Shown here: piece by piece, positions 45,047 through 60,188 of the stretch
Numbering within the stretch: the first letter of the stretch is position 1
Layout of the letters: each line of letters opens with the position of its first letter
From: an uncultured Desulfobacter sp.
GTDB taxonomy: Bacteria > Desulfobacterota > Desulfobacteria > Desulfobacterales > Desulfobacteraceae
Length of the DNA stretch: 64,000 bases
Direction: 5' to 3'
Assembly: GCA_963665095.1 (NCBI GenBank)
Contig: OY762069.1
Location: 6,560,001 to 6,624,000, forward strand
The notes under the pieces: model-generated
What the model was told of the DNA's origin: nothing
The model's database searches: none
Seen by the model: the letters and a program-made list of their open reading frames with translations, nothing else
Translations under genes and position numbers: made by a program

Positions 45047-47815
45047 GTGATGCTCAAATCGCTGAGATCAAGAATACTGGTAATCGTTATCTCTGTGATG
45101 GTTTCAACAATTGCGGGCATTGCGTTTTTTGTTCAAAAAGAGGTCATCACCACCCTGTCTGAAGTCTACGATGACAGTGTGAAAAATCTTTTGAATTCAG
45201 TCGTTCTGAATGTTGAAAATCAGTATAAAAGCCTGCTTTTTCAAAAAAAGACCTCCCTTGATATAAGAAAAACCGACAGCAAACATATTGTCACCACAGC
45301 ATTTGGGGTGATTGAAGAATTATATCACAAACAGCAGCAGGGGGTTCTTTCCGAACAGCAGGCCATGGACCAGGCCAAATCCTATCTTCGGAGCATGCGA
45401 TACAACAACGGTGTGGGGTATATCTGGATTAACGATATGGGGCGGCCAATCCCCAGAATGATTATGCATGGCGCCATGCCGGAACTCGATGGTCAGATCT
45501 TTGACGATCCAAAATACAATTGTGCCCTTGGAATCAAAAAAAATTTGCTCCAGGCATTCATGGAAACCTGTCTGGAACATGGACAGGGTTATGTGGACTA
45601 CCAGTGGCCCAAACCCACCCAGAGTGGTGTAACAATGTTCCAGCCGAAAATTTCATATGTACGCCTGTTCAAACCATGGAACTGGGTTGTGGGAACCGGT
45701 GTCTATTTTGAAGATATTGAAGCGGATTCGCAAAAAAGACTGGATGCCATTATCCTGGAACTTAAGCAGACCATTTCCAGTGTTCATTTTTTTAAAACCG
45801 GGTATATGTTTATTTTCAACCGTGAGAAACAGATCCTGGTTCATCCTGTTCTTTCCGGTTCTGACGGCAGCGTTCTTAAGGATTCCAGGACCAGCTCCCC
45901 TCTTCTGGACAATCTGATCCATGCATCGAAAACACCTGAAAAGCCCTATGAGTATTTATGGAGTAAAAATTTGCAGGACAGGGGAGAGATCAAACACTTA
46001 AAACGGGCATATGTCAGGTATTTTGAACCCATGGGCTGGTATATTGCCTGTTCCGTATATGTGGATGAGGTGGAGGCGGTTTCACATGCACTTGTCACCT
46101 ATATTCTCACCCTTTCGGGCTTCTTTGTTCTGGCCGCCATTCTTTTTTCGGTTTTTATTTCCAGAACCCTGACAAAGCCCTTAAGTGAGCTGATGTTTTC
46201 TGCAGAACGGATTGAAAGGCAGGGGGTATTTTCCGGAAAAATGCCCGTCACCGGAACAATTGAAACCAAGGCTCTGGGGACTATTTTAAATAAGATGATG
46301 GATTCCATCAGTGCCTCGGTCAATGAAAAGGAAAATTTGCTGACGGCGCTGAAGGATGCACACGATGAGCTGGAGCAAAGGGTGCATGACCGCACCAATG
46401 ACCTTGAAAAAGCCAATCAGGATCTGGTGGATGCCAAGGAAAAAGCCGAGGTTGCCAATAAGTCCAAAAGCGTGTTCCTGGCAAACATGTCCCATGAAAT
46501 CCGTACGCCCATGAACGCCATCCTGGGCCATGCCCAGATCATGGCCAGGGATAAGACGATGACGGTCCAGCAGCAAAAAGGTGTGGCTGCGATCAATCGG
46601 AGCGGAGAACATTTACTCAACCTGATCAACGATGTGCTGGATATGTCAAAAATTGAGGCCGGAAAGATAAAAATTCTTAAGTCGTCCTTTCGGCTTCATT
46701 CATTGGTTGGTGAAATAGGGGAGATGTTCCGGATTCGGATGGACCAGAAAAATCTGCAGTTCGAAACCTTTTTGTCCCCGGATCTGCCTGATCTGATCAG
46801 GGCGGATGAGGGACGGGTAAGGCAGATCATCCTTAATCTTGTGGGAAATGCCGTCAAGTTTACGGATCAAGGGGGTATCATCATAAAGGCGTCCTTGGAG
46901 GACCGGTTCATAAAAATCGTTGTTTCAGATACAGGGTACGGCATCCCCGAAGAGAGTCTGGAGACAATTTTTCAAGCCTTTGAGCAGTCGGAAAAGGGGA
47001 TGCAGACAGCAGGGGGCACAGGCTTAGGACTCGCAATCAGCCGGCAGATGGCAAGGCTCATGGGAGGTGACATCGTTGTCGAGAGCACTGTGGGGAAAGG
47101 GTCACGCTTTTTTTTCACCTTTGAATTCACACAAGGGGATAAACAAGAGATCTCAAGCAACCTGCCTGAACGGCATGTAATAAAAATCGCTCCAGGACAT
47201 GATAAGATTAAAGTGCTTGTGGTGGATGACAGAGAGGAGAACAGGCAAATTGTCAAACTGATGCTTGAGCCACTAGACTTTATTCTTACCGAAGCGGTCA
47301 ATGGAAAGGAGGCAGTTGAGATATTTAAGGCCTGGAAACCTCAAGTTATTATCATGGATGTGGTCATGCCGGTGATGGACGGCGTTGAAGCGACAAACCA
47401 GATCAGAGCCCATGAAGACGGTGCTGATACCTTTATTCTTGTACTCAGTGCCAGCGCTCTGGATCAGGAAAGGGAGCAGGTAATGAAAAACGGGGCGGAC
47501 GTCTTCATGAAAAAACCCTTTAAAGCCGCGAAACTTCTTGAACAGATCCGTATTCACACCGGAATTGAATATGAGTATGAAGAAATCCAGGGCCAGAGCA
47601 GGCCATGTGACACAGAGAAGTTCGATCCCAAAACCATTGCAGCGCTGCCCATGTCGATCAGAAATGAAATAAAGGATGCGGCGGTTCTGGGGAAAATGGA
47701 CGAACTTGAGGATCTGGTTTCCCGGATCAGTGATATCGATACGGGAATTGCTGCGCATTTAAAAGGGCTTGTGGAGGATTTTGAGTTGGAAATAATTCAG
47801 AATCTTTTTACTTAA
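45047..47815 (+). CDS. Cache-domain hybrid sensor histidine kinase
   Basis: Two Cache-like repeats, [31 protein letters not shown], and REC with MDVVMP. Confidence 0.95.
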
Positions 47816-47839
47816 ATTACAAATCAGGTAAGGGGTGGA

Positions 47840-48319
47840 ATGAACATGGAACAGATGAAAGGCGAATTACTGATTGTTGACGATAATCCTGAAAATCTGC
47901 GTGTGCTCAATTCAATGCTCAAACAGGAAGGATATAGTGTCCGGGCGGCAAAGAACGCCAAACAGGCGCTGGCAAGTATTGACAGCTCTGAACCGGACCT
48001 GATGCTTCTTGATGTCCATATGCCGGAAATGGACGGCTTTGAGCTGTGTCAGCAGATTAAAGCCCGATCTGAGTTTCATAATCTTCCGATTATTTTTTTA
48101 AGCGCCCTGAATGACACGTTTAATAAAAAGCAGGGGTTTGACGCAGGCGCGGTGGATTACATGACCAAACCCTTTGATGTTGAGGAGGTAAAGATCAGGA
48201 TCAGAACCCATCTTGAGCTTAAGGCCAGCCTGATGGAACTGGATCACCTTAAACAGGAAATCGCCAAAAGAGATAAAGAGATAGAAACATTGAAGAAAAG
48301 ACTGAATACAGTTTCGTGA
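47840..48319 (+). CDS. response regulator (REC plus coiled coil)
   Basis: LIVDD, LLDVHMP.MDG, IFLSA, TKPF. Confidence 0.93.
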   Translation: MNMEQMKGELLIVDDNPENLRVLNSMLKQEGYSVRAAKNAKQALASIDSSEPDLMLLDVHMPEMDGFELCQQIKARSEFHNLPIIFLSALNDTFNKKQGFDAGAVDYMTKPFDVEEVKIRIRTHLELKASLMELDHLKQEIAKRDKEIETLKKRLNTVS

Positions 48320-48361
48320 ATAAATCAATCCTATATCGGCAAATACGAAAGGAAGTGTGGA

Positions 48362-50311
48362 ATGGATGCCATTTTGATAGCAGATGATAATCCGGAGAAT
48401 CTGAAAGTCCTTTCCAGGCTGTTGAGGCAGGCAGGGTACAGAATCCGGGCGGCAACCAACGGGCAGCAGGCGCTCGAAAGCTTCCAGGCAGAGCCGCCGG
48501 ATCTTGTCCTGCTTGATATTCAAATGCCGAAAATGGATGGATATGAAGTTTGTCGTTTGATAAAAGAACAGCCCTGTTACAAGTTAATCCCCGTGATATT
48601 CATCAGCGCCATGGGGGAGTCCTTCAATAAGGTCATGGCGTTCGAGGCCGGTGGCAGCGATTATATCACCAAACCCATCCAGACCGAGGAAGTCCTGGCC
48701 AGAGTTAAAACACATCTGGATCTGTATAAATACCAAAGGGAACTTACGGATAAAAACATTGAACTGCTGCAGCAGTTTAAAGCCACGTTTGAACAGGCGG
48801 CTGTGGGGATTGCCCATATTGATATAACTACCGGGCAATATCTGAAAGTGAACCAGCGCTTTGCCGACATCCTTGGCTATTCAAGGGATGAACTGGTGCA
48901 AAAGACATTAAGGGAAATTACCCACCCTGATTTTCATGAAGAGGACACCTTTCAGGTTGAACTGCTTAAAAAAAAACAGATCCGTTTTTTTGTTAAGGAA
49001 AAACAGTACCTGACCGCCGATGGTTCAAGCGTGTGGTGCAAGGTAACAGTGTCGCTTGCGGATTCTCAACAGGGGAAAACGCCCGGATATCTTTTGTCCA
49101 TCATCGAGGATATCTCCAAAACCAAGGAGATGGAACAGGAGCAGAAGGCGTATGAACGGCTTGTTTTGCAGATGCAAAGGATGGAAGCCATTGGAACGCT
49201 TGCCGGGGGCATTGCCCACGATTTCAACAATATCCTTACCGCCATCATTGGTTTTACGGAGATTGCCCTTGGAGAAGCGTCCAAAGGCACCGTACTGGAG
49301 GAAAGCCTTTATGAGGTATATTCTGCCGGGAAAAGAGCCCGAGAACTGGTGAAACAGATTCTTGCAGTTGGTCGCAGTTCTGATGAAAAAATAAGCCCCA
49401 TTCAGCCCGGAGAGATCACAAAGGAAGTTCTGAAGTTCCTTCGCTCCACCACCCCGGCCACCATTGATATTACCCACCAGATAGACAGTGACGCCTCAAT
49501 CATGGGCAATGCAACCCAGGTCCACCAGTTGTTCATGAACCTTTGTACAAATGCGATCCAGGCAATGGAAGATTCAGGCGGTGTTTTAAATGTGAGCATT
49601 AAAGAGGTGCGCATTAACAAGAAGGACCTCCTGACCGGCATGAAACCGGGACCCTACATCGAAATCAAGGTGTCGGATACAGGTGTCGGCATCGCCCCGG
49701 AATTGATGAAACTGGTTTTTGACCCTTATTTTACAACCAAGGTGCCCGGCGAAGGCACCGGTTTAGGACTGGCAACGGCCCACGGCATTATCAAAAGCTA
49801 CCAGGGTAAAATAGACGTTGACAGTCAACCGGGAAAGGGAGCGACATTCACCATACACCTTCCCGTCTGCCAAGCGCAGGCTAAGAAGCCTGCCGGTGAT
49901 CCGGGGAAGCTGCCATTGGGAAAAGAGCGTATCCTGCTGGTGGATGATGAAATTGCCATTGTCAAAATGGAAACCATACAGCTTGAACGTCTCGGTTATT
50001 CTGTAACCACCAAAATCAATGGCCATGATGCGTTGGAACTGTTCAGGAACAAGCCGAATGATTTTGATCTGGTCTTAACAGACATGACAATGCCGGACAT
50101 TACCGGGGACAAACTGGCCACTGAATTGATGAATATCAGACCCGATATTCCGATTATACTCTGTACTGGGTACAGTAAGCAGATTTCAGAAGAAACCGCT
50201 TCAGAAATGGGGATTAAGGCGTTCATCTATAAACCGGTTACAATGGCGGATATGGCCAAAACTATCCGCAATGTGCTTGATGGGGCAAACGGACAAAGCA
50301 TCGCCCCATGA
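48362..50311 (+). CDS. cytoplasmic hybrid kinase REC-PAS-HisKA-HATPase-REC
   Basis: N-terminal REC, FEQAAVGIA PAS, AHDFNNIL, C-terminal REC. Confidence 0.94.
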   Translation: MDAILIADDNPENLKVLSRLLRQAGYRIRAATNGQQALESFQAEPPDLVLLDIQMPKMDGYEVCRLIKEQPCYKLIPVIFISAMGESFNKVMAFEAGGSDYITKPIQTEEVLARVKTHLDLYKYQRELTDKNIELLQQFKATFEQAAVGIAHIDITTGQYLKVNQRFADILGYSRDELVQKTLREITHPDFHEEDTFQVELLKKKQIRFFVKEKQYLTADGSSVWCKVTVSLADSQQGKTPGYLLSIIEDISKTKEMEQEQKAYERLVLQMQRMEAIGTLAGGIAHDFNNILTAIIGFTEIALGEASKGTVLEESLYEVYSAGKRARELVKQILAVGRSSDEKISPIQPGEITKEVLKFLRSTTPATIDITHQIDSDASIMGNATQVHQLFMNLCTNAIQAMEDSGGVLNVSIKEVRINKKDLLTGMKPGPYIEIKVSDTGVGIAPELMKLVFDPYFTTKVPGEGTGLGLATAHGIIKSYQGKIDVDSQPGKGATFTIHLPVCQAQAKKPAGDPGKLPLGKERILLVDDEIAIVKMETIQLERLGYSVTTKINGHDALELFRNKPNDFDLVLTDMTMPDITGDKLATELMNIRPDIPIILCTGYSKQISEETASEMGIKAFIYKPVTMADMAKTIRNVLDGANGQSIAP

Positions 50312-50369: not shown

Positions 50370-50408
50370 TTGATCTATTTAATGGCAACTGGTATGACCT
50401 CTTACCAG
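50370..50408 (+). promoter_or_regulatory. promoter with FadR-box-like operator
   Basis: TTGATC-17nt-TATGAC. AACTGGTATGACCTCTT (50387-50403) resembles the FadR consensus AACTGGTCnGACCAGTT. Confidence 0.65.
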
Positions 50409-50440
50409 AAGCTTTTCATTTTAAACAACAAGGATCAAAC

Positions 50441-51157
50441 ATGCCCCTTCTGGATGCGGCCAATGCGGAAAAACCGTTGAAACCGGCGGAAATGGCCGAA
50501 CGAAAAATTCTTGAAGCCATTCTTGACGGCTCATATGGTCCGGGAGTCGCCCTTCCGGCCGAGCGGGTTCTTGCCCAGACCATCGGGGTGACACGGCCCA
50601 CAGTGAGAGAAACCCTTCAGCGGCTGGCCAGGGAAGGGTGGGTGACCATTGCCCATGGCCGGTCCACCCGGGTTAACGATTATCTGGCCAAAGGGGGCTT
50701 GGGGATTTTGAGCACGCTTGTGCGATATAAAGACTCCTTGTCCCATGAGATGATTCTCTCCTTGCTGAAAGCCCGGGTCCTGATGCTGCCCTCTGTGGCG
50801 TGTGAGGCCGTGAAAAGCGATGGCGCGGCTATTTCCGATTATCTGACCCCTTCCCTTGATCTGAATGCGTCTGCCCGGGATTTTTCACGTTTCGATATGG
50901 GGTTGCAGAACCTGATGGTTACCCTGATCGGAAATCCGGTTGTCTCTATGATATTCAATGATTTCAATCCTGTTTACAAGGTCATGGGACCGCGGTATTT
51001 CACCCTGTCGGAGGCAAGATCCCGCTCTTTGAATTATTACGAAGCACTTGCCCAAGCCATTGAAGATTGCCTTGATGTTCGCAGTCTTGTGGAAGTGGAG
51101 ATGCAGGCAGCCGTAAATATCTGGCAGATGGTGCCGCACCAGACAGGGGGCCTGTGA
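50441..51157 (+). CDS. fadR: FadR-type acyl-CoA-responsive GntR regulator
   Basis: LPAER.LA..IGVTR.T.RE.LQRLAR.GW.TI.HG..T.VN, GL.IL.TL, GNP...IFN; closely follows the E. coli FadR pattern. Confidence 0.85.
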   Translation: MPLLDAANAEKPLKPAEMAERKILEAILDGSYGPGVALPAERVLAQTIGVTRPTVRETLQRLAREGWVTIAHGRSTRVNDYLAKGGLGILSTLVRYKDSLSHEMILSLLKARVLMLPSVACEAVKSDGAAISDYLTPSLDLNASARDFSRFDMGLQNLMVTLIGNPVVSMIFNDFNPVYKVMGPRYFTLSEARSRSLNYYEALAQAIEDCLDVRSLVEVEMQAAVNIWQMVPHQTGGL

Positions 51158-52740
51158 TGAGGCTTGGGGACACGAAATCAGATTACGATATTGTGGTCAT
51201 CGGCGGCGGCGTTTCCGGTGCCGGGGTGTTCCATCGGGCCGTGAGTATGGGACTTTCAGCACTGATGGTGGAGGCAAGGGATTTTGCCTGGGGCACATCG
51301 AGCAGGTCTTCCAAAATGGTCCATGGAGGGCTGCGTTATCTGAAACAGGGAAAAATCGGGTTGACCCGGGCCTCTGTCAGGGAGCGCCAGCGCCTTTTAT
51401 CTGTCTATCCCGGTCTTGTGACACCGCTCTCCTTTGTCATGCCGCTTTATAAAGATCTGGGACCGTCCAAAACCGTGATGTCGGCCGGGTTGAATATTTA
51501 CAGTTTTATGGCCGGGCGCCGTCAGCATACTTTTTTTGACCCCGGGCTTCTGGAAGAGACCATTCCGGGGGTGCGCAAAGACCGTCTTGTTTCCGCAGTT
51601 GAGTTCCTCGACGCACAGGTGGATGATGCCCGCCTGGTGTTGCGCCTGATTTTTGACGGGTGCGATGCCGGCGGTCACGCTGTCAACTACGTCAAAGCGT
51701 TCAGCCTTGAGCGGGATGGCAGAGGCCGGGTCTGTGCCGTGAATCTTAAAAGTAGCGACACAGGTATTGAAAAAACAGTCAGGACCCGCGCGGTAATCAA
51801 TGCCACGGGCGCTTTCGCCGAAACCCTTCACCCAAGTCCGGTGAAGGACCTTCATATCCGTCCCCTGCGCGGCAGTCACCTGATTTTTTCAAACGAGAAG
51901 TACCGCCTTGACAAGGTGCTGACCTTTTCTCACCCGACAGACGGCCGGCCCGTGTTTATTTTTCCCTGGGAAACGTGTGTGGTGCTTGGTACCACAGATG
52001 TGGATCATGGTCCGGATTTGTGCCTTGAGCCAGCTATTTCTCAGGAAGAATCTGATTATCTCATGCAGGGACTTGATGCCATTCTGCCTGGAGCAGGGCT
52101 CACACAAGATGATGTCATGGCCACCATTGCCGGGGTTCGCCCGGTGCTGAGTAAAGCGAAAACCAATGCGTCTAAAGAGTCCAGGGACCATGCCGTGTGG
52201 ACGGACAACGGTCTTGTCACGGTCACCGGTGGTAAGCTCACCACCTTTGATCTCATTGCCAGGGATGCCTTAAAAGCAGCAGCGTCTTTTTTACCGGCCA
52301 GGGCGTTAGATAAAGATAATGGCTTTGTGGCGGAAGATGCCGGCGAAACAGGGATGCCATTGCCGGATTTCCCCGGGCTTGATCCGCAAAAAGCCCTGCG
52401 TCTGTCAGGACGTTACGGCAACAGGGCCTGCCAGTTGGTAAAACGCCTTGACACGCACACGAGAAAAGATCTGTTTGATCCTGTGGACCGGACCCGGACC
52501 CTTTGGGCGGAAATTTTGCATGCCGCGGCCTGCGAACAGGTCATGCACCTTGACGATCTGCTCCTGCGCCGGGTGCGGATAGGGCTGTTGCTGCCCAATG
52601 GCGGCATGGATGTGATGCCGCAGATTAAAGCGTTGACATCACCGGTGCTGGGCTGGGATGATGCGCAGTGGCAGCAGGAAATAACCGCTTATAAGAATGT
52701 GTGGCAACACCATTATTCACCAAATCCATGGCAGGTGTAA
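51154..52740 (+). CDS. glycerol-3-phosphate dehydrogenase-like FAD oxidoreductase
   Basis: IGGG..GAG, GTSSRSSKMVHGGLRYL, DDARL, GSHL, GTTD, GVRP, GGKLTT, LLRRVR.GL. Confidence 0.92.
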   Translation: MMRLGDTKSDYDIVVIGGGVSGAGVFHRAVSMGLSALMVEARDFAWGTSSRSSKMVHGGLRYLKQGKIGLTRASVRERQRLLSVYPGLVTPLSFVMPLYKDLGPSKTVMSAGLNIYSFMAGRRQHTFFDPGLLEETIPGVRKDRLVSAVEFLDAQVDDARLVLRLIFDGCDAGGHAVNYVKAFSLERDGRGRVCAVNLKSSDTGIEKTVRTRAVINATGAFAETLHPSPVKDLHIRPLRGSHLIFSNEKYRLDKVLTFSHPTDGRPVFIFPWETCVVLGTTDVDHGPDLCLEPAISQEESDYLMQGLDAILPGAGLTQDDVMATIAGVRPVLSKAKTNASKESRDHAVWTDNGLVTVTGGKLTTFDLIARDALKAAASFLPARALDKDNGFVAEDAGETGMPLPDFPGLDPQKALRLSGRYGNRACQLVKRLDTHTRKDLFDPVDRTRTLWAEILHAAACEQVMHLDDLLLRRVRIGLLLPNGGMDVMPQIKALTSPVLGWDDAQWQQEITAYKNVWQHHYSPNPWQV

Positions 52741-52741
52741 T

Positions 52742-54286
52742 ATGGCAGACCATCTTTTGTCCATCGACTGCGGCACCCAGAGCATCCGGGCGCTTGTTTT
52801 TGATGCCAGCGGCAATATGCTGGCAGGATCCCAGAAAGAGTACGCCCCATATGAAAGTCCTGAACCGGGCCTTGCCGAACAGGACCCTGAGGTGTTCTGG
52901 CAGGGACTGATCCAGGTGTGCCGGACCATCCGGAAAGACTACCCAAAGCTTATGGCGCGTGTGGCCGGGGTGGGGGTGGCGGCCCAGCGGGACACCATGA
53001 TCAATGTGGACGAAAAAGGAGAGCCGCTTCGGCCCGCCATTGTCTGGATGGACCAGCGAAGGGCACAGCCTGAGTTTGCCGCCACAGGAATTCTGGGGGG
53101 TGCTGTGGCACTCACCGGACTGAAAAAACGCCTCATGGACGCCCAGGCCCAGGCCAAATGCAACTGGCTGCGCCAGAAACAACCTGCTATCTGGCAGGTT
53201 ACCCACAAGTACCTGCAGGTGTCGGGGTTTTTGAACTTCCGGCTCACCGGCCTTTTTAACGATTCCATTGCCTCCCAGATCGGGCACGTGCCCTTTGATT
53301 ATAAAAAACAGACCTGGGCTGGAAATTTGAGCCTGACCCGCAGGCTTTTTCCCATTGAACCCTCAAAACTGCCCATGCTGGCAGAACCAGGTAAAATTTT
53401 GGGAAATGTGACACCGGAGGCTGCCGCACTCACCGGCATCCCGGCGGGGCTTCCCGTGATCGCCTGCGGATCGGACAAAGGGTGTGAAACCCTGGGCAAC
53501 GGCGTTACCGACCCATCCATGGTCTCTTTGAGTTTCGGGACCATGGCCACGGTGCAGACCACCACACCAAAGTACTTTGAGGCCATCTCCCTGATGCCGC
53601 CTTATCCGGCCCCCATGCCCGGCCACTTTAATCCTGAGGTGGAGATTTACCGGGGCTTCTGGATGATCTCCTGGTTTAAGAACCAGTTTGCCCATAAAGA
53701 GGTGGAAGAGGCAAAAGCGGCAGGAACGGTGCCAGAAAAATTGCTGGACCAGTGCCTGGATCGCACCCCGCCGGGTGCCATGGGCCTTGTGGTGCAGCCT
53801 TACTGGGGACCGGGCCTTGAGCGGCCCGGGGCCAAGGGTGCCATGATCGGGTTCGGTGACGTCCATACCCGTGACCATGTTTACCGGGCCGTGATCGAGG
53901 GTCTTGGCTTTGCCCTGAAAGAGGGGATGGAGGCGATCCAGGCCAAGTCCGGGGTAAAGGTCCAGGCGTGTGCACTGTCCGGGGGTGCCAGTCAGAGCGA
54001 GGCCATCTGCCGGATTGCCGCTGATATTTTTAACCTGCCCATGCAGGCCGGGGCCACCCATGAAACCTCCGGCCTAGGTGCGGCCGTGGTAACGGCTGCC
54101 GGCACCGGCATCTATCCGGACATCAAAACCGCCTGTACCCGAATGACCCGGCCGGCAAAACGGTTTGAACCGGACCCCTCCCACGCGGCCGTGTATGAGC
54201 AGCTCTATCATCAGGTCTATAAAAAGATGTATCACCGTCTGTCGCCTTTGTATAAACAGATTCAAACCATAACAGGATATCCTTGA
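52742..54286 (+). CDS. FGGY family carbohydrate/polyol kinase
   Basis: SIDCGTQSIRA, EQDP, W.DQR, DKGCE..G, RAVIEG, SGGASQS, GLGAA. Confidence 0.92.
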   Translation: MADHLLSIDCGTQSIRALVFDASGNMLAGSQKEYAPYESPEPGLAEQDPEVFWQGLIQVCRTIRKDYPKLMARVAGVGVAAQRDTMINVDEKGEPLRPAIVWMDQRRAQPEFAATGILGGAVALTGLKKRLMDAQAQAKCNWLRQKQPAIWQVTHKYLQVSGFLNFRLTGLFNDSIASQIGHVPFDYKKQTWAGNLSLTRRLFPIEPSKLPMLAEPGKILGNVTPEAAALTGIPAGLPVIACGSDKGCETLGNGVTDPSMVSLSFGTMATVQTTTPKYFEAISLMPPYPAPMPGHFNPEVEIYRGFWMISWFKNQFAHKEVEEAKAAGTVPEKLLDQCLDRTPPGAMGLVVQPYWGPGLERPGAKGAMIGFGDVHTRDHVYRAVIEGLGFALKEGMEAIQAKSGVKVQACALSGGASQSEAICRIAADIFNLPMQAGATHETSGLGAAVVTAAGTGIYPDIKTACTRMTRPAKRFEPDPSHAAVYEQLYHQVYKKMYHRLSPLYKQIQTITGYP

Positions 54287-54287
54287 A

Positions 54288-55982
54288 ATGAGTTCACAGC
54301 CCAAGACGCCATTCGTCCCTGCCTGGATTGAGACCCCGCCCGGCCAAAATACCTTTCGTTCCATCTTGAAATGGGGGGCACCGGACGCCTTTAAAAATCC
54401 CAGCCCCGGATTCTTAAAGGTGATTAAAGAACAGCTTCATCTGACGGATTCTGATTTCAAGGCCCCGGCAGATACAGGAAACAACCAGATCCCCGATACC
54501 ATTGAATCGACCCCGGCGGCGCTGAATGTCGCGGCATTTGAAGAGGTTGCAGGCATGGAAAATGTCTGTGTCAGCGGTCCTGAGCGGCTTCGGTATTCCA
54601 GCGGCAAGGCCATGGAGGATCTCATGGCGCTTCGTAAAGGGAACATATCGGATACCTGCGACATTGTGGTCCATCCCAGGGATAAGGCAGATGTGCAGAA
54701 GGTGGTGGCCCTGTGCCATGAGAAGCGAATCCCTTTGCATATCTACAGCGGGGGCAGTTCCGTGGTCTCCGGCCTTAACTGTCCAAAGGGCGGGGTGACG
54801 CTGGTGATCTCCACCCATATGAACCGGATGATCCGGTTTAATGAGACGGACCAGACCATCACCGTGGAGCCGGGCATGTCAGGGCCTTTTTACGAGGAAC
54901 TGCTCAACCAGGCAAAAACGCGGCTCAACGCCCGGTGCGCCTATACCGGGGGCCATTTCCCCCAGAGTTTTGAGTTCTCCACAGTGGGTGGCTGGATATC
55001 GGCCCTTGGGTCGGGCCAGGCATCCTCCCTTTACGGGGATGCCGCCGATCTCGTTATCGCCCAGGAGTATGTGACCCCCGCCGGCACCTTTGAAACCCAT
55101 GCCTATCCGGCCACAGCCACAGGCCCCAAGGTGGGTGAAATCATGAAAGGGTCGGAAGGCGCTTTGGGTGTGCTGGTCTCCGTGACTTTGAAAGTATTTG
55201 AATACCTGCCTGAAAATAACCGGCAGTTTGCCTTTATGTTTCCCGATTTTACAACCGCTGTTGAAGCCGGCCGTATGATTTGCCAGGGCCGGTTCGGCAT
55301 GCCCGCCATTTTCAGAATCTCCGATGCCGAGGAGACCGATGTGGCGCTTCAGATGTACGGCCTTGACAAAGGGATTCTGGCAAAATTTCTGAAATTCAGG
55401 GGCATGGAGCCGGGCAAACGGTGTCTGGTCATGGGCCAGGCCGAAGGGGAGAAAGGCTTTGCCGCCAATGTGGCAAGAATGGTGAAAAAAACCGCAAAGC
55501 AGCACGGCGGCCTCTATCTCACCGGCTATCCCATGGCCAAGTGGTACCACGGCCGGTTTTCCGACCCTTATCTGCGGGATGCCCTCAATGATTTCGGGGT
55601 CCTCATCGACACCCTGGAGTGCGCCACTACCTGGGAGAACCTGCACCACCTGCACCGGGAGGTAAGGGCTAAGGTGAAATCCAGGCCCCGTACCATCTGC
55701 ATGACCCATGCATCCCATTTTTACGCCCAGGGCACCAATCTCTATTTTATTTTCATCACCCGGGAGTCGGATCTTGAGGATTTCAGGCGATACCAGCGCA
55801 CCATCATTGACGCCATTGAGGCGGCTGGCGGATCTTTAAGCCACCACCACGGGGTCGGGCGGATGATGGCTCCGTGGATGGAACGGCATTTAGGCGCCGT
55901 TCAGATGGATATCCTGCGCGCACTTAAAAATCACCTCGATCCCAACGGTATCATGAATCCGGGTGCCTTGGGGCTGCCTTGA
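54288..55982 (+). CDS. alkyl-dihydroxyacetonephosphate synthase-like FAD oxidoreductase
   Basis: GG.SV, GHFPQSFEFSTVGGWI, GSEG.LGV, R.SD..ET, DTLE.A..W, H.SH.Y..G..LYF.F, SHHHGVG, DP.GIMNPG. Confidence 0.88.
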   Translation: MSSQPKTPFVPAWIETPPGQNTFRSILKWGAPDAFKNPSPGFLKVIKEQLHLTDSDFKAPADTGNNQIPDTIESTPAALNVAAFEEVAGMENVCVSGPERLRYSSGKAMEDLMALRKGNISDTCDIVVHPRDKADVQKVVALCHEKRIPLHIYSGGSSVVSGLNCPKGGVTLVISTHMNRMIRFNETDQTITVEPGMSGPFYEELLNQAKTRLNARCAYTGGHFPQSFEFSTVGGWISALGSGQASSLYGDAADLVIAQEYVTPAGTFETHAYPATATGPKVGEIMKGSEGALGVLVSVTLKVFEYLPENNRQFAFMFPDFTTAVEAGRMICQGRFGMPAIFRISDAEETDVALQMYGLDKGILAKFLKFRGMEPGKRCLVMGQAEGEKGFAANVARMVKKTAKQHGGLYLTGYPMAKWYHGRFSDPYLRDALNDFGVLIDTLECATTWENLHHLHREVRAKVKSRPRTICMTHASHFYAQGTNLYFIFITRESDLEDFRRYQRTIIDAIEAAGGSLSHHHGVGRMMAPWMERHLGAVQMDILRALKNHLDPNGIMNPGALGLP

Positions 55983-55988
55983 TTTGGT

Positions 55989-57257
55989 TTAAAATAGTCC
56001 GGTAAACGGATTGGACAGCTTTTTATCAATTCGGTTCAGGTTTGCCAGCCGTTTCATATCCCGGGTCAGGTTATCCATGCACTGCTCAATGGATTCCCGG
56101 GTGTCCAGGATATCTTTCCGGGTCTGGATCATATCGAAAAACGTATTAACCACAACCGGATCAAACCGGGTGCCGCTGCCGATTCTCAGCTGTCCCAGGG
56201 CTGCGGTCAGGCCCATTTTGCCAAGCTTGGCCCGGCCCGATATCATGGTGTCAAAGGCATCACAGAGCGTGATGATCCGGGCACCTAAGGGAATCTGTTC
56301 TCCTTTGATCCCGTCGGGGTAGCCTGTGCCGTCAAACAGTTCATGGTGGGCCCGGACAAGCGGAGAGATGTCTCCTAAAAATGTCAACGGCGCAAGAATG
56401 TCTGCCCCGAGCACCGGGTGTTTTTTAATATCTTCCATCTGTCTGGCGTTGAGTTTTCCCAAACGGCTCAGGGTCTGGTCCCGGGTGCCGATTTTGCCGA
56501 TGTCATGCAGGAGGGCGGCATGGTGGATTCTGTCAATTTCCCCATTTTCCAAACCCATGTGTACAGCCACAGCCTTTGCCAGCCTTGCAACGGTCTTAGA
56601 GTGACCGTGGGTGGCCGGGTCCCGGGCCTCAATGGCCAGAGCAAACCCCTTGATAATCTGTCCGTACAGATCCAGCATCTGTTCGTCGTACACCAGGGCC
56701 TTTTCAAGGGCGATGGCACCCTGCTCGGACAGGGCCGTTAAAAATTCAAGCTCATCTTCGGACAGGGTGCGTGTGGCGGTAAAGTAGACGGCAAGAAGGC
56801 CTTTAAAGGAGCCCGTGATATCCACATAAAGGCCGGTAATGGCATTGATCAGGTGTTTGCCCAAACGCTCGAGATCCGGGATGCGGGGGTCATTTCGGGC
56901 ATCTGTGATGACAATGGGGCCAAAAGTGTCAGGATCAAACAGGGTGACCAGGGTGGAATAGTCCACCCGCGAAAGACTGCGAAAATCAAACCCGTGGCTG
57001 ATCTTGGTTTCGATTTTTTGGCTCTGGGTATTCAGAATCCAGAAAATGGCGCCCTTGGCACGCAGCAGATCTGCGGAATGGGAGACAATGCAGGACAGAA
57101 TGTCGGCCACCCCGGTGTTTGCATGGATCTGCTTGCTGATGCCGGCAAACAGTCGGAAATAATCCCGGAACCGGTCTGACGGGTTTTGCTTTTGATCTGG
57201 GGAATGGGTTGTCTGTCCGGTTTTCCTGGGAGGCAAAAGGGATGAAGGGATATTCAT
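55989..57257 (-). CDS. GAF + HD-GYP cyclic di-nucleotide phosphodiesterase
   Basis: T.GHS, LHDIGK, HP..GA, HHE..DGTGYP, DAFD.M. Confidence 0.93.
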   Translation of the reverse strand: MNIPSSLLPPRKTGQTTHSPDQKQNPSDRFRDYFRLFAGISKQIHANTGVADILSCIVSHSADLLRAKGAIFWILNTQSQKIETKISHGFDFRSLSRVDYSTLVTLFDPDTFGPIVITDARNDPRIPDLERLGKHLINAITGLYVDITGSFKGLLAVYFTATRTLSEDELEFLTALSEQGAIALEKALVYDEQMLDLYGQIIKGFALAIEARDPATHGHSKTVARLAKAVAVHMGLENGEIDRIHHAALLHDIGKIGTRDQTLSRLGKLNARQMEDIKKHPVLGADILAPLTFLGDISPLVRAHHELFDGTGYPDGIKGEQIPLGARIITLCDAFDTMISGRAKLGKMGLTAALGQLRIGSGTRFDPVVVNTFFDMIQTRKDILDTRESIEQCMDNLTRDMKRLANLNRIDKKLSNPFTGLF

Positions 57258-57275
57258 GAAACGTGTCTCTCCTTT

Positions 57276-58448
57276 TTAAAAAAAATTCATCCAGGCCTGA
57301 TTAAATGTTTTCGCCATTTTTTTCTGGAACCGGGCCACCACATCCAGGTGCCGGTTCAACGCCTTAATCTGCTCCGGTTCAAGGGCATCCAGATCAATGC
57401 AGTTGGGTTCCAGGTGGCCGGTGCTGCCGGTCAGATGGGTTTTCAGCTTCAGCCGGGTCAGAAAGATAAAGGTGTCCATTAAGTCTTGGCACGCCTGCTC
57501 GGAAAGCACCTGGTCCCGGCCCAGCCGTTCCAGCCGATGGAGTGTGGCAGGTGTACGGATACCGTGGTTTACGGCAAATATCCGGGCTCCGTTAACCAGG
57601 TGGGCCAGGCCCTGGGTTTTCAGGTTAAAGCACCTGGAACAGCCTTTCTTTTTAATTGTTCTGATCCGGTTGAATCTGGTTTTAGGTGGCGCAAACAACT
57701 GGTCGTCCCTGACCAGAAAGTGGCTGGCTGCCGTGTGGGCCTCAAAGTTTTTAAACACCCGTTCCTGCAGGGTTGCGCCCAGACGGGCATCCCCGAATAC
57801 AGGTTTAAAATCCAGGAATATGGTCAGTTTGCGCACCGCATCAGGGTCTGCAGATCCCACCCAGCTGTCCAGGGCCGTGAGCCACCTGCCAAGGGAGTGG
57901 CACCACTGAGGGTTGCTGGCCATGATATTTCCCTTGCACAGGGCAAACCCGAACCGGTCCAGCCCGGCTGTCACTGTCCTGCCGAGTTGCGCAAAATAGT
58001 CGGCGGCCGGATTCAGCATATCTTCGGGTGGGTCTGCATAGATCAGGGCATTGTCCTGGTCGGTTCTGATTACCTGTTCTCCCCTGGCATCAGATCCCAT
58101 GGAGATCCAGCAGAAGGGCAGGGGCGGACCGTTTCCCGTCCCGGCTTCTATGTCCGCCATACTGTCCCGGATGATTCTGGCGGTTACGAGGGTGTTGAAC
58201 CGGGATACCCGGTCAAACAGAAACGACAGGGATGGCTTTTCAAATGTGGCAGGCATTGTCAGGCACGCAAGAATCCAGTCATCCATCCGGTCGGCAAGGC
58301 CTGAATCATACAGGTCAAGGTCCGGAATTGTTTCAAGCAGGGCTTTATACTGGCGGTCCAGCCCCATAATACCCTCATGGGCAGGCTGTGCCGGTATATC
58401 CGGAAGCACCTTTAGTTTTCCCGGTTTTATTCTGTTCGGGGTATGCAT
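57276..58448 (-). CDS. DUF294 nucleotidyltransferase-like protein
   Basis: MGS.AR.EQ...TDQDNAL, C.GNIMASNP.W, IFLDF, and DUF294_C segment NLK..G...L..AR...T..RL. Confidence 0.9.
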   Translation of the reverse strand: MHTPNRIKPGKLKVLPDIPAQPAHEGIMGLDRQYKALLETIPDLDLYDSGLADRMDDWILACLTMPATFEKPSLSFLFDRVSRFNTLVTARIIRDSMADIEAGTGNGPPLPFCWISMGSDARGEQVIRTDQDNALIYADPPEDMLNPAADYFAQLGRTVTAGLDRFGFALCKGNIMASNPQWCHSLGRWLTALDSWVGSADPDAVRKLTIFLDFKPVFGDARLGATLQERVFKNFEAHTAASHFLVRDDQLFAPPKTRFNRIRTIKKKGCSRCFNLKTQGLAHLVNGARIFAVNHGIRTPATLHRLERLGRDQVLSEQACQDLMDTFIFLTRLKLKTHLTGSTGHLEPNCIDLDALEPEQIKALNRHLDVVARFQKKMAKTFNQAWMNFF

Positions 58449-58451
58449 GGC

Positions 58452-60188
58452 TTATATAAAAAATACCTGGTTGCGTCCTTGAGACTTGGCTCTATAAAGG
58501 GCCTTGTCGGCCCGGTTGAACAGGGTTGTCTCATCTTCCCCGTCCCGGTACTGGGTGACACCAATGCTGATGGTGGCCTTCACCGGGGACCCGGTATGGA
58601 TATCGAACTCCGATAGTTCAAATTTTTTTCTGATACGCTCGGCAAGCTCTGCTGCATGGTTCAGAAGGGTTGCCGGCAGGATGATAGAAAATTCTTCGCC
58701 GCCGTACCGGCAGGCAATATCAGACTGCCGGACGCCGGAGAGCATCATCCGGCCCAGGGATTCAAGGACAATATCGCCTGCCGCATGGCCATAGGTATCA
58801 TTGACGGTTTTAAAATGGTCCACATCCAGAACCATTAAGGACAGCGGCGTTGATCTGCCCCTGATTCTCTGGATTTCCTGGGCGAGCGTTGTGAAAAAAT
58901 AACTTTTATTGTAAAGGCCTGTGAGGCTGTCGGTGATGGAGAGACGCTGAAGCACCTGGCTTTTTTTAAGCAGCTGGCCCCGTTCTTCTTTAAGGAGCCG
59001 GATCCGGTCTGCCAGGGCCATGGAGAGCAGCAGGGATTCGATGGCACTGCCTGTTAAGTGGGCATTGGTTGTTAGAAAATTGCTGGCAATGATACCGAAG
59101 CCTGCCGCACTGGCGGTAAATGAACCGATCATCATGGTGATCCAGGCCGCAAGGTAGCCCCTGGCAGGTGAAAAACCCTGGTACAGGCGCCGGAACCCGG
59201 CTGTCAGCACAATGGCCGGGCAGGCAAACCCCAGAATGTGGAGAATGACATTGGCCTGTTTGGGATATCCCGCAAAGTTCAGAAGAATGTCCAGTCCGCC
59301 AACGATAATGCATCCCCAGATCATTTTATGAAGAATGGGCAGATGGTGTTTGGAGTTCAGAAACCGCAGGGTGAACAGGCAGGCAAATATCAGGGCCAGT
59401 AACAAAAGGGCAGGGCCAAGAAAGCGCAGATGGGGAACACCCAGAATATTGATCAGGTTCACCCGTACAAACAGGTAGGTCAGAAAAAGTAAGATATATA
59501 AAATGTACAGAAAATAGATCCTGTCCATAATGACCAGCCATAAAAACAGGTTGTACAGTATCATTGCGGACATGATTCCGATGATGATCCCGAAAAATCC
59601 CAGTTCCTTCCATGTGGCTTTCAAAAAGGTGATATTATCTTCAATAAACACGGTAAAATTCAGGGAAGCATGATAATACGGGCTGGAAGGATCAATTCGA
59701 AGATAGATGTAATGGTTGCCGGAAAGGCCGGCAGGCAGAGAAAATACCGGGTAGCAGTATCGGTAGGTCTGGCTGGATGGATTCTGGAAAGTGCCGGCTT
59801 TGATCCTGGTATATGATATATCCGCCCCGGTTTCTCTGGGCAGGAACAGATCCACATAGGCGAAATCTTTATCAATTACCAGAAGCTCGCTGCTGTGGTC
59901 TGATGCGGACAAATCGCTATCATCATGTAAAAGGAACCTGACCCACACCACGGAGTGGGCTGTGCCGAATTTAAAGGACGATGACCCGGCCGTGGTGAAC
60001 TGCCTGCCTGTACCTGGTGTCAGGATATCTGTCAGGCCGAGTGTTTTGGTGTCATCCAGGAGATATTGAAGCTGCCGGCAACCTGAAGAGTGATGAACTT
60101 CCTGTTTGGACAGGACCGATACGGCACCGATTAAAATCAATATCAGGACAGACAAGCCTGAAACAATAATGTGGCGTTTTATACTCAT
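58452..60188 (-). CDS. 7TM-DISM diguanylate cyclase
   Basis: 7TMR-DISMED2-like W.RF segment, seven TMs, LLSMALADR, D.D.FK.VND.YGH..GD, RQSD I-site, GGEEF. Confidence 0.95.
   Translation of the reverse strand: MSIKRHIIVSGLSVLILILIGAVSVLSKQEVHHSSGCRQLQYLLDDTKTLGLTDILTPGTGRQFTTAGSSSFKFGTAHSVVWVRFLLHDDSDLSASDHSSELLVIDKDFAYVDLFLPRETGADISYTRIKAGTFQNPSSQTYRYCYPVFSLPAGLSGNHYIYLRIDPSSPYYHASLNFTVFIEDNITFLKATWKELGFFGIIIGIMSAMILYNLFLWLVIMDRIYFLYILYILLFLTYLFVRVNLINILGVPHLRFLGPALLLLALIFACLFTLRFLNSKHHLPILHKMIWGCIIVGGLDILLNFAGYPKQANVILHILGFACPAIVLTAGFRRLYQGFSPARGYLAAWITMMIGSFTASAAGFGIIASNFLTTNAHLTGSAIESLLLSMALADRIRLLKEERGQLLKKSQVLQRLSITDSLTGLYNKSYFFTTLAQEIQRIRGRSTPLSLMVLDVDHFKTVNDTYGHAAGDIVLESLGRMMLSGVRQSDIACRYGGEEFSIILPATLLNHAAELAERIRKKFELSEFDIHTGSPVKATISIGVTQYRDGEDETTLFNRADKALYRAKSQGRNQVFFI

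Follow-up and report, generated by a model that had tools for sequence, protein, structure and literature searches.

An operon with an alkyl-dihydroxyacetone phosphate synthase-like flavoprotein in an uncultured Desulfobacter: a candidate for O2-independent alkylglycerol breakdown or salvage

The ether bonds of glycerol lipids are chemically stable, and the only ether-cleaving enzyme known to us, alkylglycerol monooxygenase, needs O2. How, then, are alkylglycerols, plasmalogen backbones and bacterial ether lipids recycled in anoxic sediments and in guts? This question is raised by a four-gene operon located at positions 50441-55982 of a 64,000-nucleotide stretch of DNA (the window) from an uncultured Desulfobacter sp., whose genome is a 6.9-Mb single contig (C1 in the coordinates below). 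The operon codes for a FadR-like repressor, a GlpD-like dehydrogenase, an FGGY-family kinase and a flavoprotein resembling alkyl-dihydroxyacetone phosphate (alkyl-DHAP) synthase, an enzyme called AGPS in mammals and ADPS in Dictyostelium. We propose, with a probability of roughly 0.4, that its products degrade or salvage a glycerol substituted at C1, which would most plausibly be an alkylglycerol (1-O-alkylglycerol or 1-alkyl-glycerol-3-phosphate), and that they do not serve the synthesis of ether lipids.

In the ORF list of the window the four genes appear on the + strand as 50441-51157, 51154-52740, 52697-54286 and 54288-55982. The first gene stops with the TGA at 51155-51157, and the GlpD-like frame offers a GTG at 51154 as well as an in-frame ATG at 51157, so that the two genes overlap by 4 or by 1 bp; alignments of GlpD-like orthologues, obtained by tblastn of the relatives' loci, begin at ATG 51157. 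The first start codon of the open frame of the kinase is at 52697. Because the ATG at 52742, which is in frame with it, comes 1 bp after the stop codon of the GlpD-like gene (TAA, 52738-52740), 52742 is most likely the start of the kinase gene. Another 1-bp gap separates the stop codon of the kinase gene (TGA, 54284-54286) from the ATG of the AGPS-like gene at 54288. Direct reading of the junctions thus bore out the tight coupling claimed in a preliminary description of the locus, with a first overlap of either 4 or 1 bp. The genes and the Pfam domains of their products are:

50441..51157, + strand: FadR-like GntR-family repressor, 238 amino acids (PF00392 + PF07840; GntR + FadR_C)
51157..52740, + strand: GlpD-like FAD dehydrogenase, 527 amino acids from ATG 51157 (PF01266 + PF16901; DAO + DAO_C)
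52742..54286, + strand: FGGY-family kinase, 514 amino acids (FGGY_N + FGGY_C)
54288..55982, + strand: AGPS-like flavoprotein, 564 amino acids (PF01565 + PF02913; FAD_binding_4 + FAD-oxidase_C; assigned by domains, sequence and fold)

The AGPS-like flavoprotein

The two domains of the AGPS-like protein were recognized with E-values of 7.9e-27 (PF01565) and 1.2e-36 (PF02913). Its best relatives of solved structure were Dictyostelium ADPS (2uuu, E 7e-64, 219.5 bits) and guinea-pig AGPS (4bby, E 7e-54, 186.5 bits); the next family, D-lactate dehydrogenase, followed with E 1.5e-23 and 86 bits, about 130 bits below ADPS. The three alkyl-DHAP synthase motifs listed in the preliminary description are all there, in the form of GHFPQSFEFSTVGGWI, LYFIF and HHHGVG.

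R352, R447 and Y508 of the Dictyostelium enzyme have been named as catalytically important (PMC3509576), and H616 and H617 of the mammalian enzyme as active-site residues (PMC13019191). In the alignment, in which positions of the 2uuu chain equal the published Dictyostelium numbering minus 3, the first three residues correspond to R343, R430 and Y486 of the window protein, Y508 being also the equivalent of guinea-pig Y578. The counterpart of the mammalian HHH loop (H615-617) is H519-521, within SHHHGVG 518-524. Among 44 homologues from several phyla R343, R430, Y486, H519 and H521 were invariant, and H520 was conserved in at least 90 per cent.

An AlphaFold2 model of the protein, calculated from the alignment of the 44 homologues, had a mean predicted local distance difference test (pLDDT) value of 89 and a predicted template modeling (pTM) score of 0.88. 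The best fold matches obtained with Foldseek were all AGPS structures (4bby, 5ae3) with template modeling (TM) scores of 0.81-0.83 over ~584 columns, and the match to D-lactate dehydrogenase was weaker (TM 0.68, ~500 columns). Since the model spans ~584 columns of AGPS as against ~500 of D-lactate dehydrogenase, the AGPS-specific N-terminal part is predicted to be present. Judged by solved relatives, conserved catalytic residues and predicted fold, the last gene product truly belongs, within the VAO family, to the branch of the alkyl-DHAP synthases, and the family assignment made at the outset can be retained.

The VAO family is rich in D-lactate and glycolate dehydrogenases, and it could be argued that the operon joins a redundant second route for glycerol or glycerol-3-phosphate (G3P) to an unrelated D-2-hydroxyacid-type dehydrogenase. 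GlcD-type enzymes carry an EHG motif, however, and the last protein has HHHGVG and the ~130-bit preference for ADPS over D-lactate dehydrogenase; the two other enzymes bear on this possibility too (see below).

A second AGPS-like protein, of 484 amino acids, is encoded in the same genome in a cluster at C1:5610566-5617071. It contains the motifs GHSPQS, LYF and HHHGIG, is without the N-terminal ~80 residues, and its best solved relative is also AGPS (150 bits). The cluster comprises genes for a GntR/FCD regulator, an SDR protein, the beta and alpha subunits of an electron-transferring flavoprotein (ETF) and a second FAD-linked oxidase (529 amino acids), with a xylose-isomerase-like TIM-barrel gene upstream; this gene content suggests a YgcU-type redox cluster. 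Because the ETF-linked paralogue keeps LYF and HHHGIG, the LYF and HHH motifs alone are no proof of a non-redox exchange reaction.

Kinase and dehydrogenase, and their linkage in other genomes

The GlpD-like protein scored 256 bits with PRK12266 (cut-off 360); its best solved relative was 3da1, a G3P dehydrogenase (E 1e-59). For the FGGY kinase the best NCBIfam model was XylB (251 bits, cut-off 380), the GlpK model gave 146 bits (cut-off 590), and the best solved relative was 3ifr, an uncharacterised FGGY kinase. The Glu of the QRET motif has a role in glycerol kinase; in the FGGY kinases associated with AGPS-like genes it is not conserved (D, G, S, S, D, N, L). These kinases share a hydrophobic insert (G.W..LF...GM-like, alignment columns ~118-150) and a PPYP.A.PG motif, both missing in the GlpK of the genome.

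A separate canonical glycerol locus lies at C1:6518000-6530000, ~30-42 kb upstream of the window. It includes a MIP channel gene and codes for the following proteins (scores compared with curated NCBIfam cut-offs):

C1:6518000-6530000, GlpK: 872 and 740 bits, cut-offs 498 and 590
C1:6518000-6530000, GlpA: 610 bits, cut-off 553
C1:6518000-6530000, GlpB: 189 bits, cut-off 174
C1:6518000-6530000, GlpC: 394 bits, cut-off 278
C1:6518000-6530000, DhaK: 486 bits, cut-off 406

A second GlpD-type gene was found at C1:5818516-5820174. Because a full glpF-glpK, glpABC and dhaK set lies elsewhere, the operon is not the glycerol pathway of the cell. Plain glycerol catabolism was rejected as its function, the canonical locus being complete and the operon's own enzymes scoring below the GlpK and GlpD cut-offs. 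The redundant second route mentioned above would agree with the membership of the kinase and the dehydrogenase in the GlpK/XylB and GlpD superfamilies. Taking into account that both enzymes are well under the cut-offs, that true GlpK and GlpABC are present, and that the linkage to the AGPS-like gene is conserved across phyla, we consider this explanation very unlikely.

This linkage was studied in 41 genomes, comprising the window's own, 24 from other members of the genus and 16 from other families of the order (one per family). Close orthologues of the AGPS-like gene (E <=1e-215) were detected in 6 of the 24 genus genomes and in 5 of the 16 other-family genomes, the Desulfobacter orthologues being 71-73 per cent identical to the window protein. 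Fifteen relatives' loci, 11-20 kb each, were taken and checked by tblastn. The AGPS-like gene shared its stretch with a GlpD-like orthologue in 14 loci and with an FGGY orthologue in 14, mostly in adjacent positions; a FadR-like gene was present in 9, and gene order was variable. The association of GlpD-like, FGGY and AGPS-like genes (the module) is far beyond chance.

Five further other-family genomes (of the 16) had an AGPS-like form of 531 amino acids, ~31 per cent identical to the window protein, which scored 284 bits with 2uuu (219.5 for the window protein) and in three of four members of which HQH replaces HHH. This form adjoins GlpD-like and FGGY orthologues (46-51 per cent identity) in four of the five loci, and a GlpD-like orthologue only in L023. 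In three loci of the 531-amino-acid form the kinase gene is followed by a gene for a Metallophos + 5'-nucleotidase_C protein of 642-666 amino acids (L025:880-2808, L026:3931-5931, L027:3117-5060), after which L027 has an aldehyde:ferredoxin oxidoreductase gene.

In a wider scan at least 597 relatives were found (597 of the 600 matches listed, with one genome per species), of which the best 80 were kept for neighbourhood analysis. These 80 span Thermodesulfobacteriota, Spirochaetota, Clostridia (including gut taxa such as Faecalicatena contorta), Chloroflexota, Bacteroidales, Actinomycetota, Holophagaceae and Myxococcales. Candidate carriers in culture are Desulfoluna spongiiphila AA1 (L044), Clostridium sediminicola (L066) and Faecalicatena contorta (L092). 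As far as can be judged from the sequences, conservation of the module extends over at least eight phyla. There were no Pseudomonas or E. coli names among the best 120 matches of two match lists. Neighbours were counted in the 49 loci that had at least 4.5 kb on both sides, a neighbour being a gene within 4.5 kb that scored at least 250 bits with any of three query types of the G3P-dehydrogenase family or, for FGGY orthologues, at least 300 bits:

any G3P-dehydrogenase-family neighbour: 39/49
dehydrogenase of the window's type: 11/49
dehydrogenase of a second DAO+DAO_C type: 8/49
dehydrogenase of a GlpA-like DAO+BFD type: 20/49
FGGY orthologue neighbour: 29/49
dehydrogenase and kinase both: 27/49
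kinase only: 2/49
dehydrogenase only: 12/49
neither partner: 8/49

In Clostridia the dehydrogenase is a trio of DAO+BFD, Pyr_redox_2 and DUF1667 proteins. It follows from these counts that the conserved core consists of a G3P-dehydrogenase-type step and the AGPS-like enzyme, usually with the kinase. By sequence comparison, the dehydrogenase step is replaced non-orthologously, with three G3P-dehydrogenase types in use, and there are two AGPS-like lineages. Some single neighbours have a lipid flavour, namely a patatin gene two genes off (L021), an FMN_red+SCP2 gene beside the GlpD-like gene (L023), a DegV gene after the AGPS-like gene (L066), and the Metallophos + 5'-nucleotidase_C and aldehyde:ferredoxin oxidoreductase genes mentioned above.

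Acyltransferase and acyl-CoA reductase genes had been reported as absent, and this holds: domain and profile annotation of the window proteins revealed neither in the flanks of the operon, which encode signalling proteins, and no acyltransferase, fatty-acyl reductase or alkyl-DHAP reductase was found in or near the module in the window flanks and 25 annotated relatives' loci. The best match in the genome to PF07993 (NAD_binding_4), presumably the domain of fatty acyl-CoA reductases, had only 63 bits.

The flanking genes, at 45047-50311 (+ strand) and 55989-60188 (- strand), belong to two-component and cyclic di-GMP signalling. On the 5' side they code for a dCache hybrid kinase, a receiver protein and a PAS hybrid kinase; on the 3' side, convergent and 6 nt away, for a GAF + HD-GYP-type protein, a DUF294 nucleotidyltransferase and a 7TMR-DISM GGDEF cyclase. 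The GAF + HD-GYP-type and DUF294 genes flank the operon in four of five same-genus loci too (L013-L016; none seen in L017). Further downstream, 60447-62582 (+ strand) codes for a 711-amino-acid protein with a C-terminal LOG/SLOG-type (Lysine_decarbox) domain, the N-terminal ~500 residues of which are without a family match.

The FadR-type repressor and its operator

The first gene product had been described as a fatty-acyl-CoA regulator. It matched PF00392 with 69 and PF07840 with 77 bits, and its best solved relative was E. coli FadR (1e2x, E 2e-33); it stayed under both FadR equivalog cut-offs (NF003444, 170.2 vs 189; TIGR02812, 165.7 vs 249.2). The DNA-contact residues of FadR and the E. 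coli fadL, fadBA and fadD operators are printed in PMC4259882. Six of the seven contact residues are kept (R35, T44, R45, T47, R49 and H65), T46 is replaced by Pro, and W60 is also identical. Sequence comparison thus identifies the regulator as a real FadR homologue. Upstream of its gene the following elements were recognized:

50370..50375, + strand: -35-like hexamer TTGATC (TTGA invariant in 6/6, TTGAC in 5/6 aligned Desulfobacter upstream regions)
50387..50409, no strand assigned: predicted FadR-type operator AACTGGTATGACCTCTTACCAGA, 23 bp, inverted-repeat arms CTGGTA/TACCAG

The predicted operator covers a -10-like TATGAC (50393-50398) located 17 nt past the -35 hexamer, and shares the CTGGT-NN-GAC core with the E. 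coli fadL, fadBA and fadD sites (PMC4259882). In six Desulfobacter genomes 22 of its 23 positions are invariant, the exception being a T-to-A change in G011, and the surroundings are not conserved. The exact operator occurs as a single copy in the 6.9-Mb genome and once per genome in each of five relatives; a reversed control pattern gave 0 matches. Because the operator is unique per genome and overlaps the promoter of its own operon, the regulator is, on this evidence, a repressor of the FadR type that is dedicated to this operon and controls its own gene; it is not a global regulator of fatty-acid metabolism. Of the initial description, kinship with FadR was upheld.

A global FadR regulon was considered and rejected, as the genome has one exact site, the next-best site shows 5 mismatches, and each of the five relatives has one site. 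The next-best site, C1:4793390-4793412 (L108:4391-4413), differs at 5 of the 23 positions and keeps CTGGT..TGAC....CCAG. A Lipase_3 (class-3 lipase) gene (L108:3486-4358, minus strand) follows 33 nt downstream of it; by our estimate, chance alone would give ~0.16 sites of this quality among the 196 core matches. This lipase is not conserved, with one weak match (32 per cent identity, E 9e-9) in one of the five relatives, and for this reason the site is only a weak lead.

The operator box was also found in 10 of 23 further loci with a GntR-type regulator, namely in six Desulfobacterales of other families and in four Anaerolineae (L095, L097, L098, L100). In the latter it reads AACTGGTAAGACCTCT[A/T]ACCAC and is located ~60 nt upstream of the regulator gene, and all four loci have the same FadR / GlpD-like / AGPS-like / FGGY arrangement as the window. 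Two spirochaete loci have a different palindrome at the place of the operator. The apparent conservation of the operator across two phyla implies that the module travels together with its regulation, and suggests that the whole of it, operator included, was transferred between phyla.

Direction, substrate and relation to known systems

The operon could be thought to serve ether-lipid synthesis, glycerol being converted through G3P to DHAP, or lyso-phosphatidate being oxidised directly to acyl-DHAP, and acyl/alkyl exchange then yielding alkyl-DHAP. Ether formation is the only proven reaction of the AGPS family (PMC3509576), MXAN_1676 of Myxococcus xanthus, which adjoins a FAR-GNPAT fusion, contributes to ether lipids (10.1101/2025.10.10.681575), and alkylglycerol ether lipids are produced by some Desulfobacteraceae (PMC5552659). 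For the Pseudomonas operon PA3026-PA3024 (see below), PMC8151288 sketches a route that starts with glycerol and ends at alkylglycerone phosphate; PMC13159169 mentions distant agps homologues in some Ger-carrying genomes and suggests a second biosynthetic pathway. However, acyltransferase, fatty-acyl reductase and alkyl-DHAP reductase genes are missing in and near the module (window flanks and 25 annotated relatives' loci), the genome contains no strong PF07993 match, a glycerol-to-DHAP route is already present, and the module is patchy in the genus (6 of 24 other species). A FadR-type repressor is what one would typically expect in a catabolic system, and the gut Clostridia and Pseudomonas carriers are, to our knowledge, not known as makers of AGPS-type ether lipids. 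In addition, Ger was shown experimentally to make ether lipids in Desulfatibacillum, and the synthesis of these lipids in a sulfate reducer was thus assigned to it (PMC13159169). The Desulfobacter genome has three ORFs of 1329-1412 amino acids with two BcrAD_BadFG and a DUF2229 domain (C1:3261033-3265076, C1:2421885-2425874 and C1:2138612-2142850). We take this domain set to be associated with PlsA/Ger; the three ORFs are possible candidates for ether-lipid or plasmalogen synthesis in this Desulfobacter, which would leave the operon free for another role. On balance, a role in synthesis appears improbable. Because biosynthetic partners are missing, the AGPS-like protein is a true family member and the regulator is a real FadR homologue, catabolism or salvage fits better.

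No functional assignment of the module was found in the literature. The one published counterpart is the Pseudomonas aeruginosa operon PA3026-PA3024, which belongs to the regulon of GliR (PA3027) and codes for a GlpD homologue, a carbohydrate kinase and an FAD-binding oxidoreductase to which the alkylglycerone-phosphate step was assigned (PMC8151288). PA3026-PA3024, the lipid kinase PA3023 and the phospholipase C PA3464 are induced 47- to 173-fold by GliR, a regulator of the AraC type, the induction of PA3026-PA3024 exceeding 100-fold. The same paper reports that a PA3026-PA3024 deletion mutant showed no phenotype with glycerol, with citrate or in nine BIOLOG plates (PM1, 2, 3, 4, 9, 10, 15, 16 and 18; PMC8151288).

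Starting from the gene identities, the conserved catalytic residues, the fold, the synteny, the operator and the existence of a separate glycerol pathway, the following course of alkylglycerol breakdown or salvage can be envisaged. The FGGY kinase would phosphorylate the free primary hydroxyl. Oxidation at C2 by the GlpD-like enzyme, with the quinone pool as electron acceptor, would then yield a 1-O-substituted dihydroxyacetone phosphate. The AGPS-like enzyme, entering its reaction from the alkyl side, would enolise this substrate, attach its C1 to N5 of the flavin and set the substituent free in the form of an alcohol; replacement of the substituent by water or a fatty acid would give DHAP or acyl-DHAP for central metabolism. 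The FadR-type repressor, bound to the operator overlapping the promoter, would be released by a lipid-derived effector, possibly acyl-CoA from the released chain. As the kinase is dispensable in a quarter of the loci, a phosphate of the lyso-phospholipid type may also be the form in which the substrate arrives.

Of the conceivable substituents an ether-linked alkyl chain is the most attractive, because the known substrates of AGPS are DHAP derivatives of this kind. It is favoured also by the dispensability of the kinase, by the lack of a recurrent transporter beside the module (25 annotated relatives' loci), by regulators and neighbours that lean to lipids, and by the fact that the ether bond is without a known anaerobic cleavage route.

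The chief competing explanation is the catabolism of a small soluble glycerol derivative, a polyol or an intracellular phospho-metabolite, in which the kinase and the G3P-dehydrogenase-like enzyme would produce a keto-phosphate, the AGPS-like protein would act on this as a dehydrogenase or as a lyase or transferase, and no long alkyl chain would be involved. Several observations that agree with it weigh at the same time against an alkylglycerol substrate. FGGY kinases with known substrates use soluble sugars or polyols, we know of none that acts on a lipid, and by sequence the best family match of the operon's kinase is xylulokinase. An FGGY kinase coupled to a GlpD-like dehydrogenase is also reminiscent of the erythritol route (EryA/EryB). 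UTRA-type GntR regulators typically answer sugar-phosphate effectors, and such a regulator is present in the Clostridium sediminicola locus (L066). Members of the wider AGPS-like family can be ordinary dehydrogenases, as indicated by the ETF-linked 484-amino-acid paralogue, which resembles redox enzymes. On the other hand, transport genes do not recur, and no polyol-route isomerase, aldolase or transporter genes were found in the window and the 25 annotated loci. A dehydrogenase without an FGGY kinase, as in 12 of the 49 loci, would be odd for an imported polyol, and the P. aeruginosa deletion was without defect on the nine BIOLOG plates (PMC8151288). Neither the window nor the 25 annotated loci showed an ETF or Fe-S partner to which the AGPS-like protein could pass electrons, and the AGPS-specific residues and N-terminal domain are kept. 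Weighing both sides, we regard a soluble substrate as rather unlikely, though well worth keeping in mind; the rest of the probability belongs to explanations not yet imagined.

In alkylglycerol breakdown as outlined here, the nature of the substrate and of the effector and the direction in which the reaction runs are inferred, and further points tell against it. The reverse, ether-cleaving direction of AGPS and the use of water as nucleophile are drawn from general enzymology. The alignment of the repressor to E. coli FadR ends before the ligand residues G216, S219 and W223, and regulators of the module vary by lineage, from the UTRA-type GntR protein of C. sediminicola to an AraC type in Pseudomonas (PMC8151288).

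The preliminary description had proposed an O2-independent route by which ethers are cleaved or salvaged or, in the opposite direction, made. Its preference for catabolism or salvage over synthesis is strengthened by the separate glycerol pathway, the lack of a recurrent transporter in the 25 annotated loci and the co-induction of the P. aeruginosa counterpart with a phospholipase C and a lipid kinase (PMC8151288); its alkylglycerol substrate, lipid-phosphorylating FGGY kinase and reversed AGPS reaction stay conjectural. More tentatively, and with considerable doubt, the module could be the missing O2-independent ether-lipid cleavage route, in which alkylglycerol is phosphorylated, oxidised and de-alkylated by reverse AGPS action, and which has spread horizontally together with its operator among sulfate reducers, syntrophs, Anaerolineae, spirochaetes, gut Clostridia and, from literature evidence only, Pseudomonas.

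If this were true, it would bear on the preservation and reading of ether-lipid biomarkers, open an approach to the turnover of ether lipids by bacteria of the gut and other hosts' associates, account for the GliR regulon of P. aeruginosa, so far unexplained, and add a second physiological direction to the covalent-flavin chemistry of AGPS. Even with a soluble substrate, the module would represent a large conserved set of enzymes, with at least 597 relatives, open to direct assay. The enzyme families are already known, and a single publication has taken notice of the module (PMC8151288). New are the coexistence of the module with a full canonical glycerol pathway in one genome, the displacement pattern of the dehydrogenase and the AGPS-like lineage deduced from the comparisons, and the apparent conservation of a FadR-type operator across two phyla.

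Among known systems, AGPS/ADPS (EC 2.5.1.26; 2UUU, 4BBY, MXAN_1676) has the same two Pfam domains, catalytic Tyr, two Arg and HHH loop as the AGPS-like protein. Identity is only ~25 per cent in the structural alignment, however, the partners here are a kinase and a G3P-dehydrogenase-like enzyme instead of the FAR-GNPAT fusion of M. xanthus (10.1101/2025.10.10.681575), and the AGPS-like proteins form a separate clade that is widespread in anaerobes. The YgcU-type paralogue differs in having ETF partners, of which the operon has none. Kinase and dehydrogenase belong to the same superfamilies as canonical GlpF-GlpK and GlpD/GlpABC and would perform the same formal steps, phosphorylation followed by FAD-linked C2 oxidation, but they fall short of the cut-offs that the genome's own set passes. 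E. coli FadR (1E2X/1HW1) is the closest solved relative of the repressor, with similar contact residues and operator core, from which the Desulfobacter protein is distinguished by its sub-cut-off score, the Pro at T46, a single operator at its own operon and the absence of a fad/fab regulon. As described in PMC8151288, PA3026-PA3024(-PA3023) unites the same three families in one operon and has no glycerol phenotype; it differs in its AraC-type activator, an extra YegS-type lipid kinase and co-induction with phospholipase C, in place of which the Desulfobacter operon has a FadR-type repressor. Finally, the glycerol ester reductase Ger, a modified PlsA, is likewise concerned with sn-1 alkyl ether glycerolipids in sulfate reducers and belongs to an unrelated enzyme family (PMC13159169).

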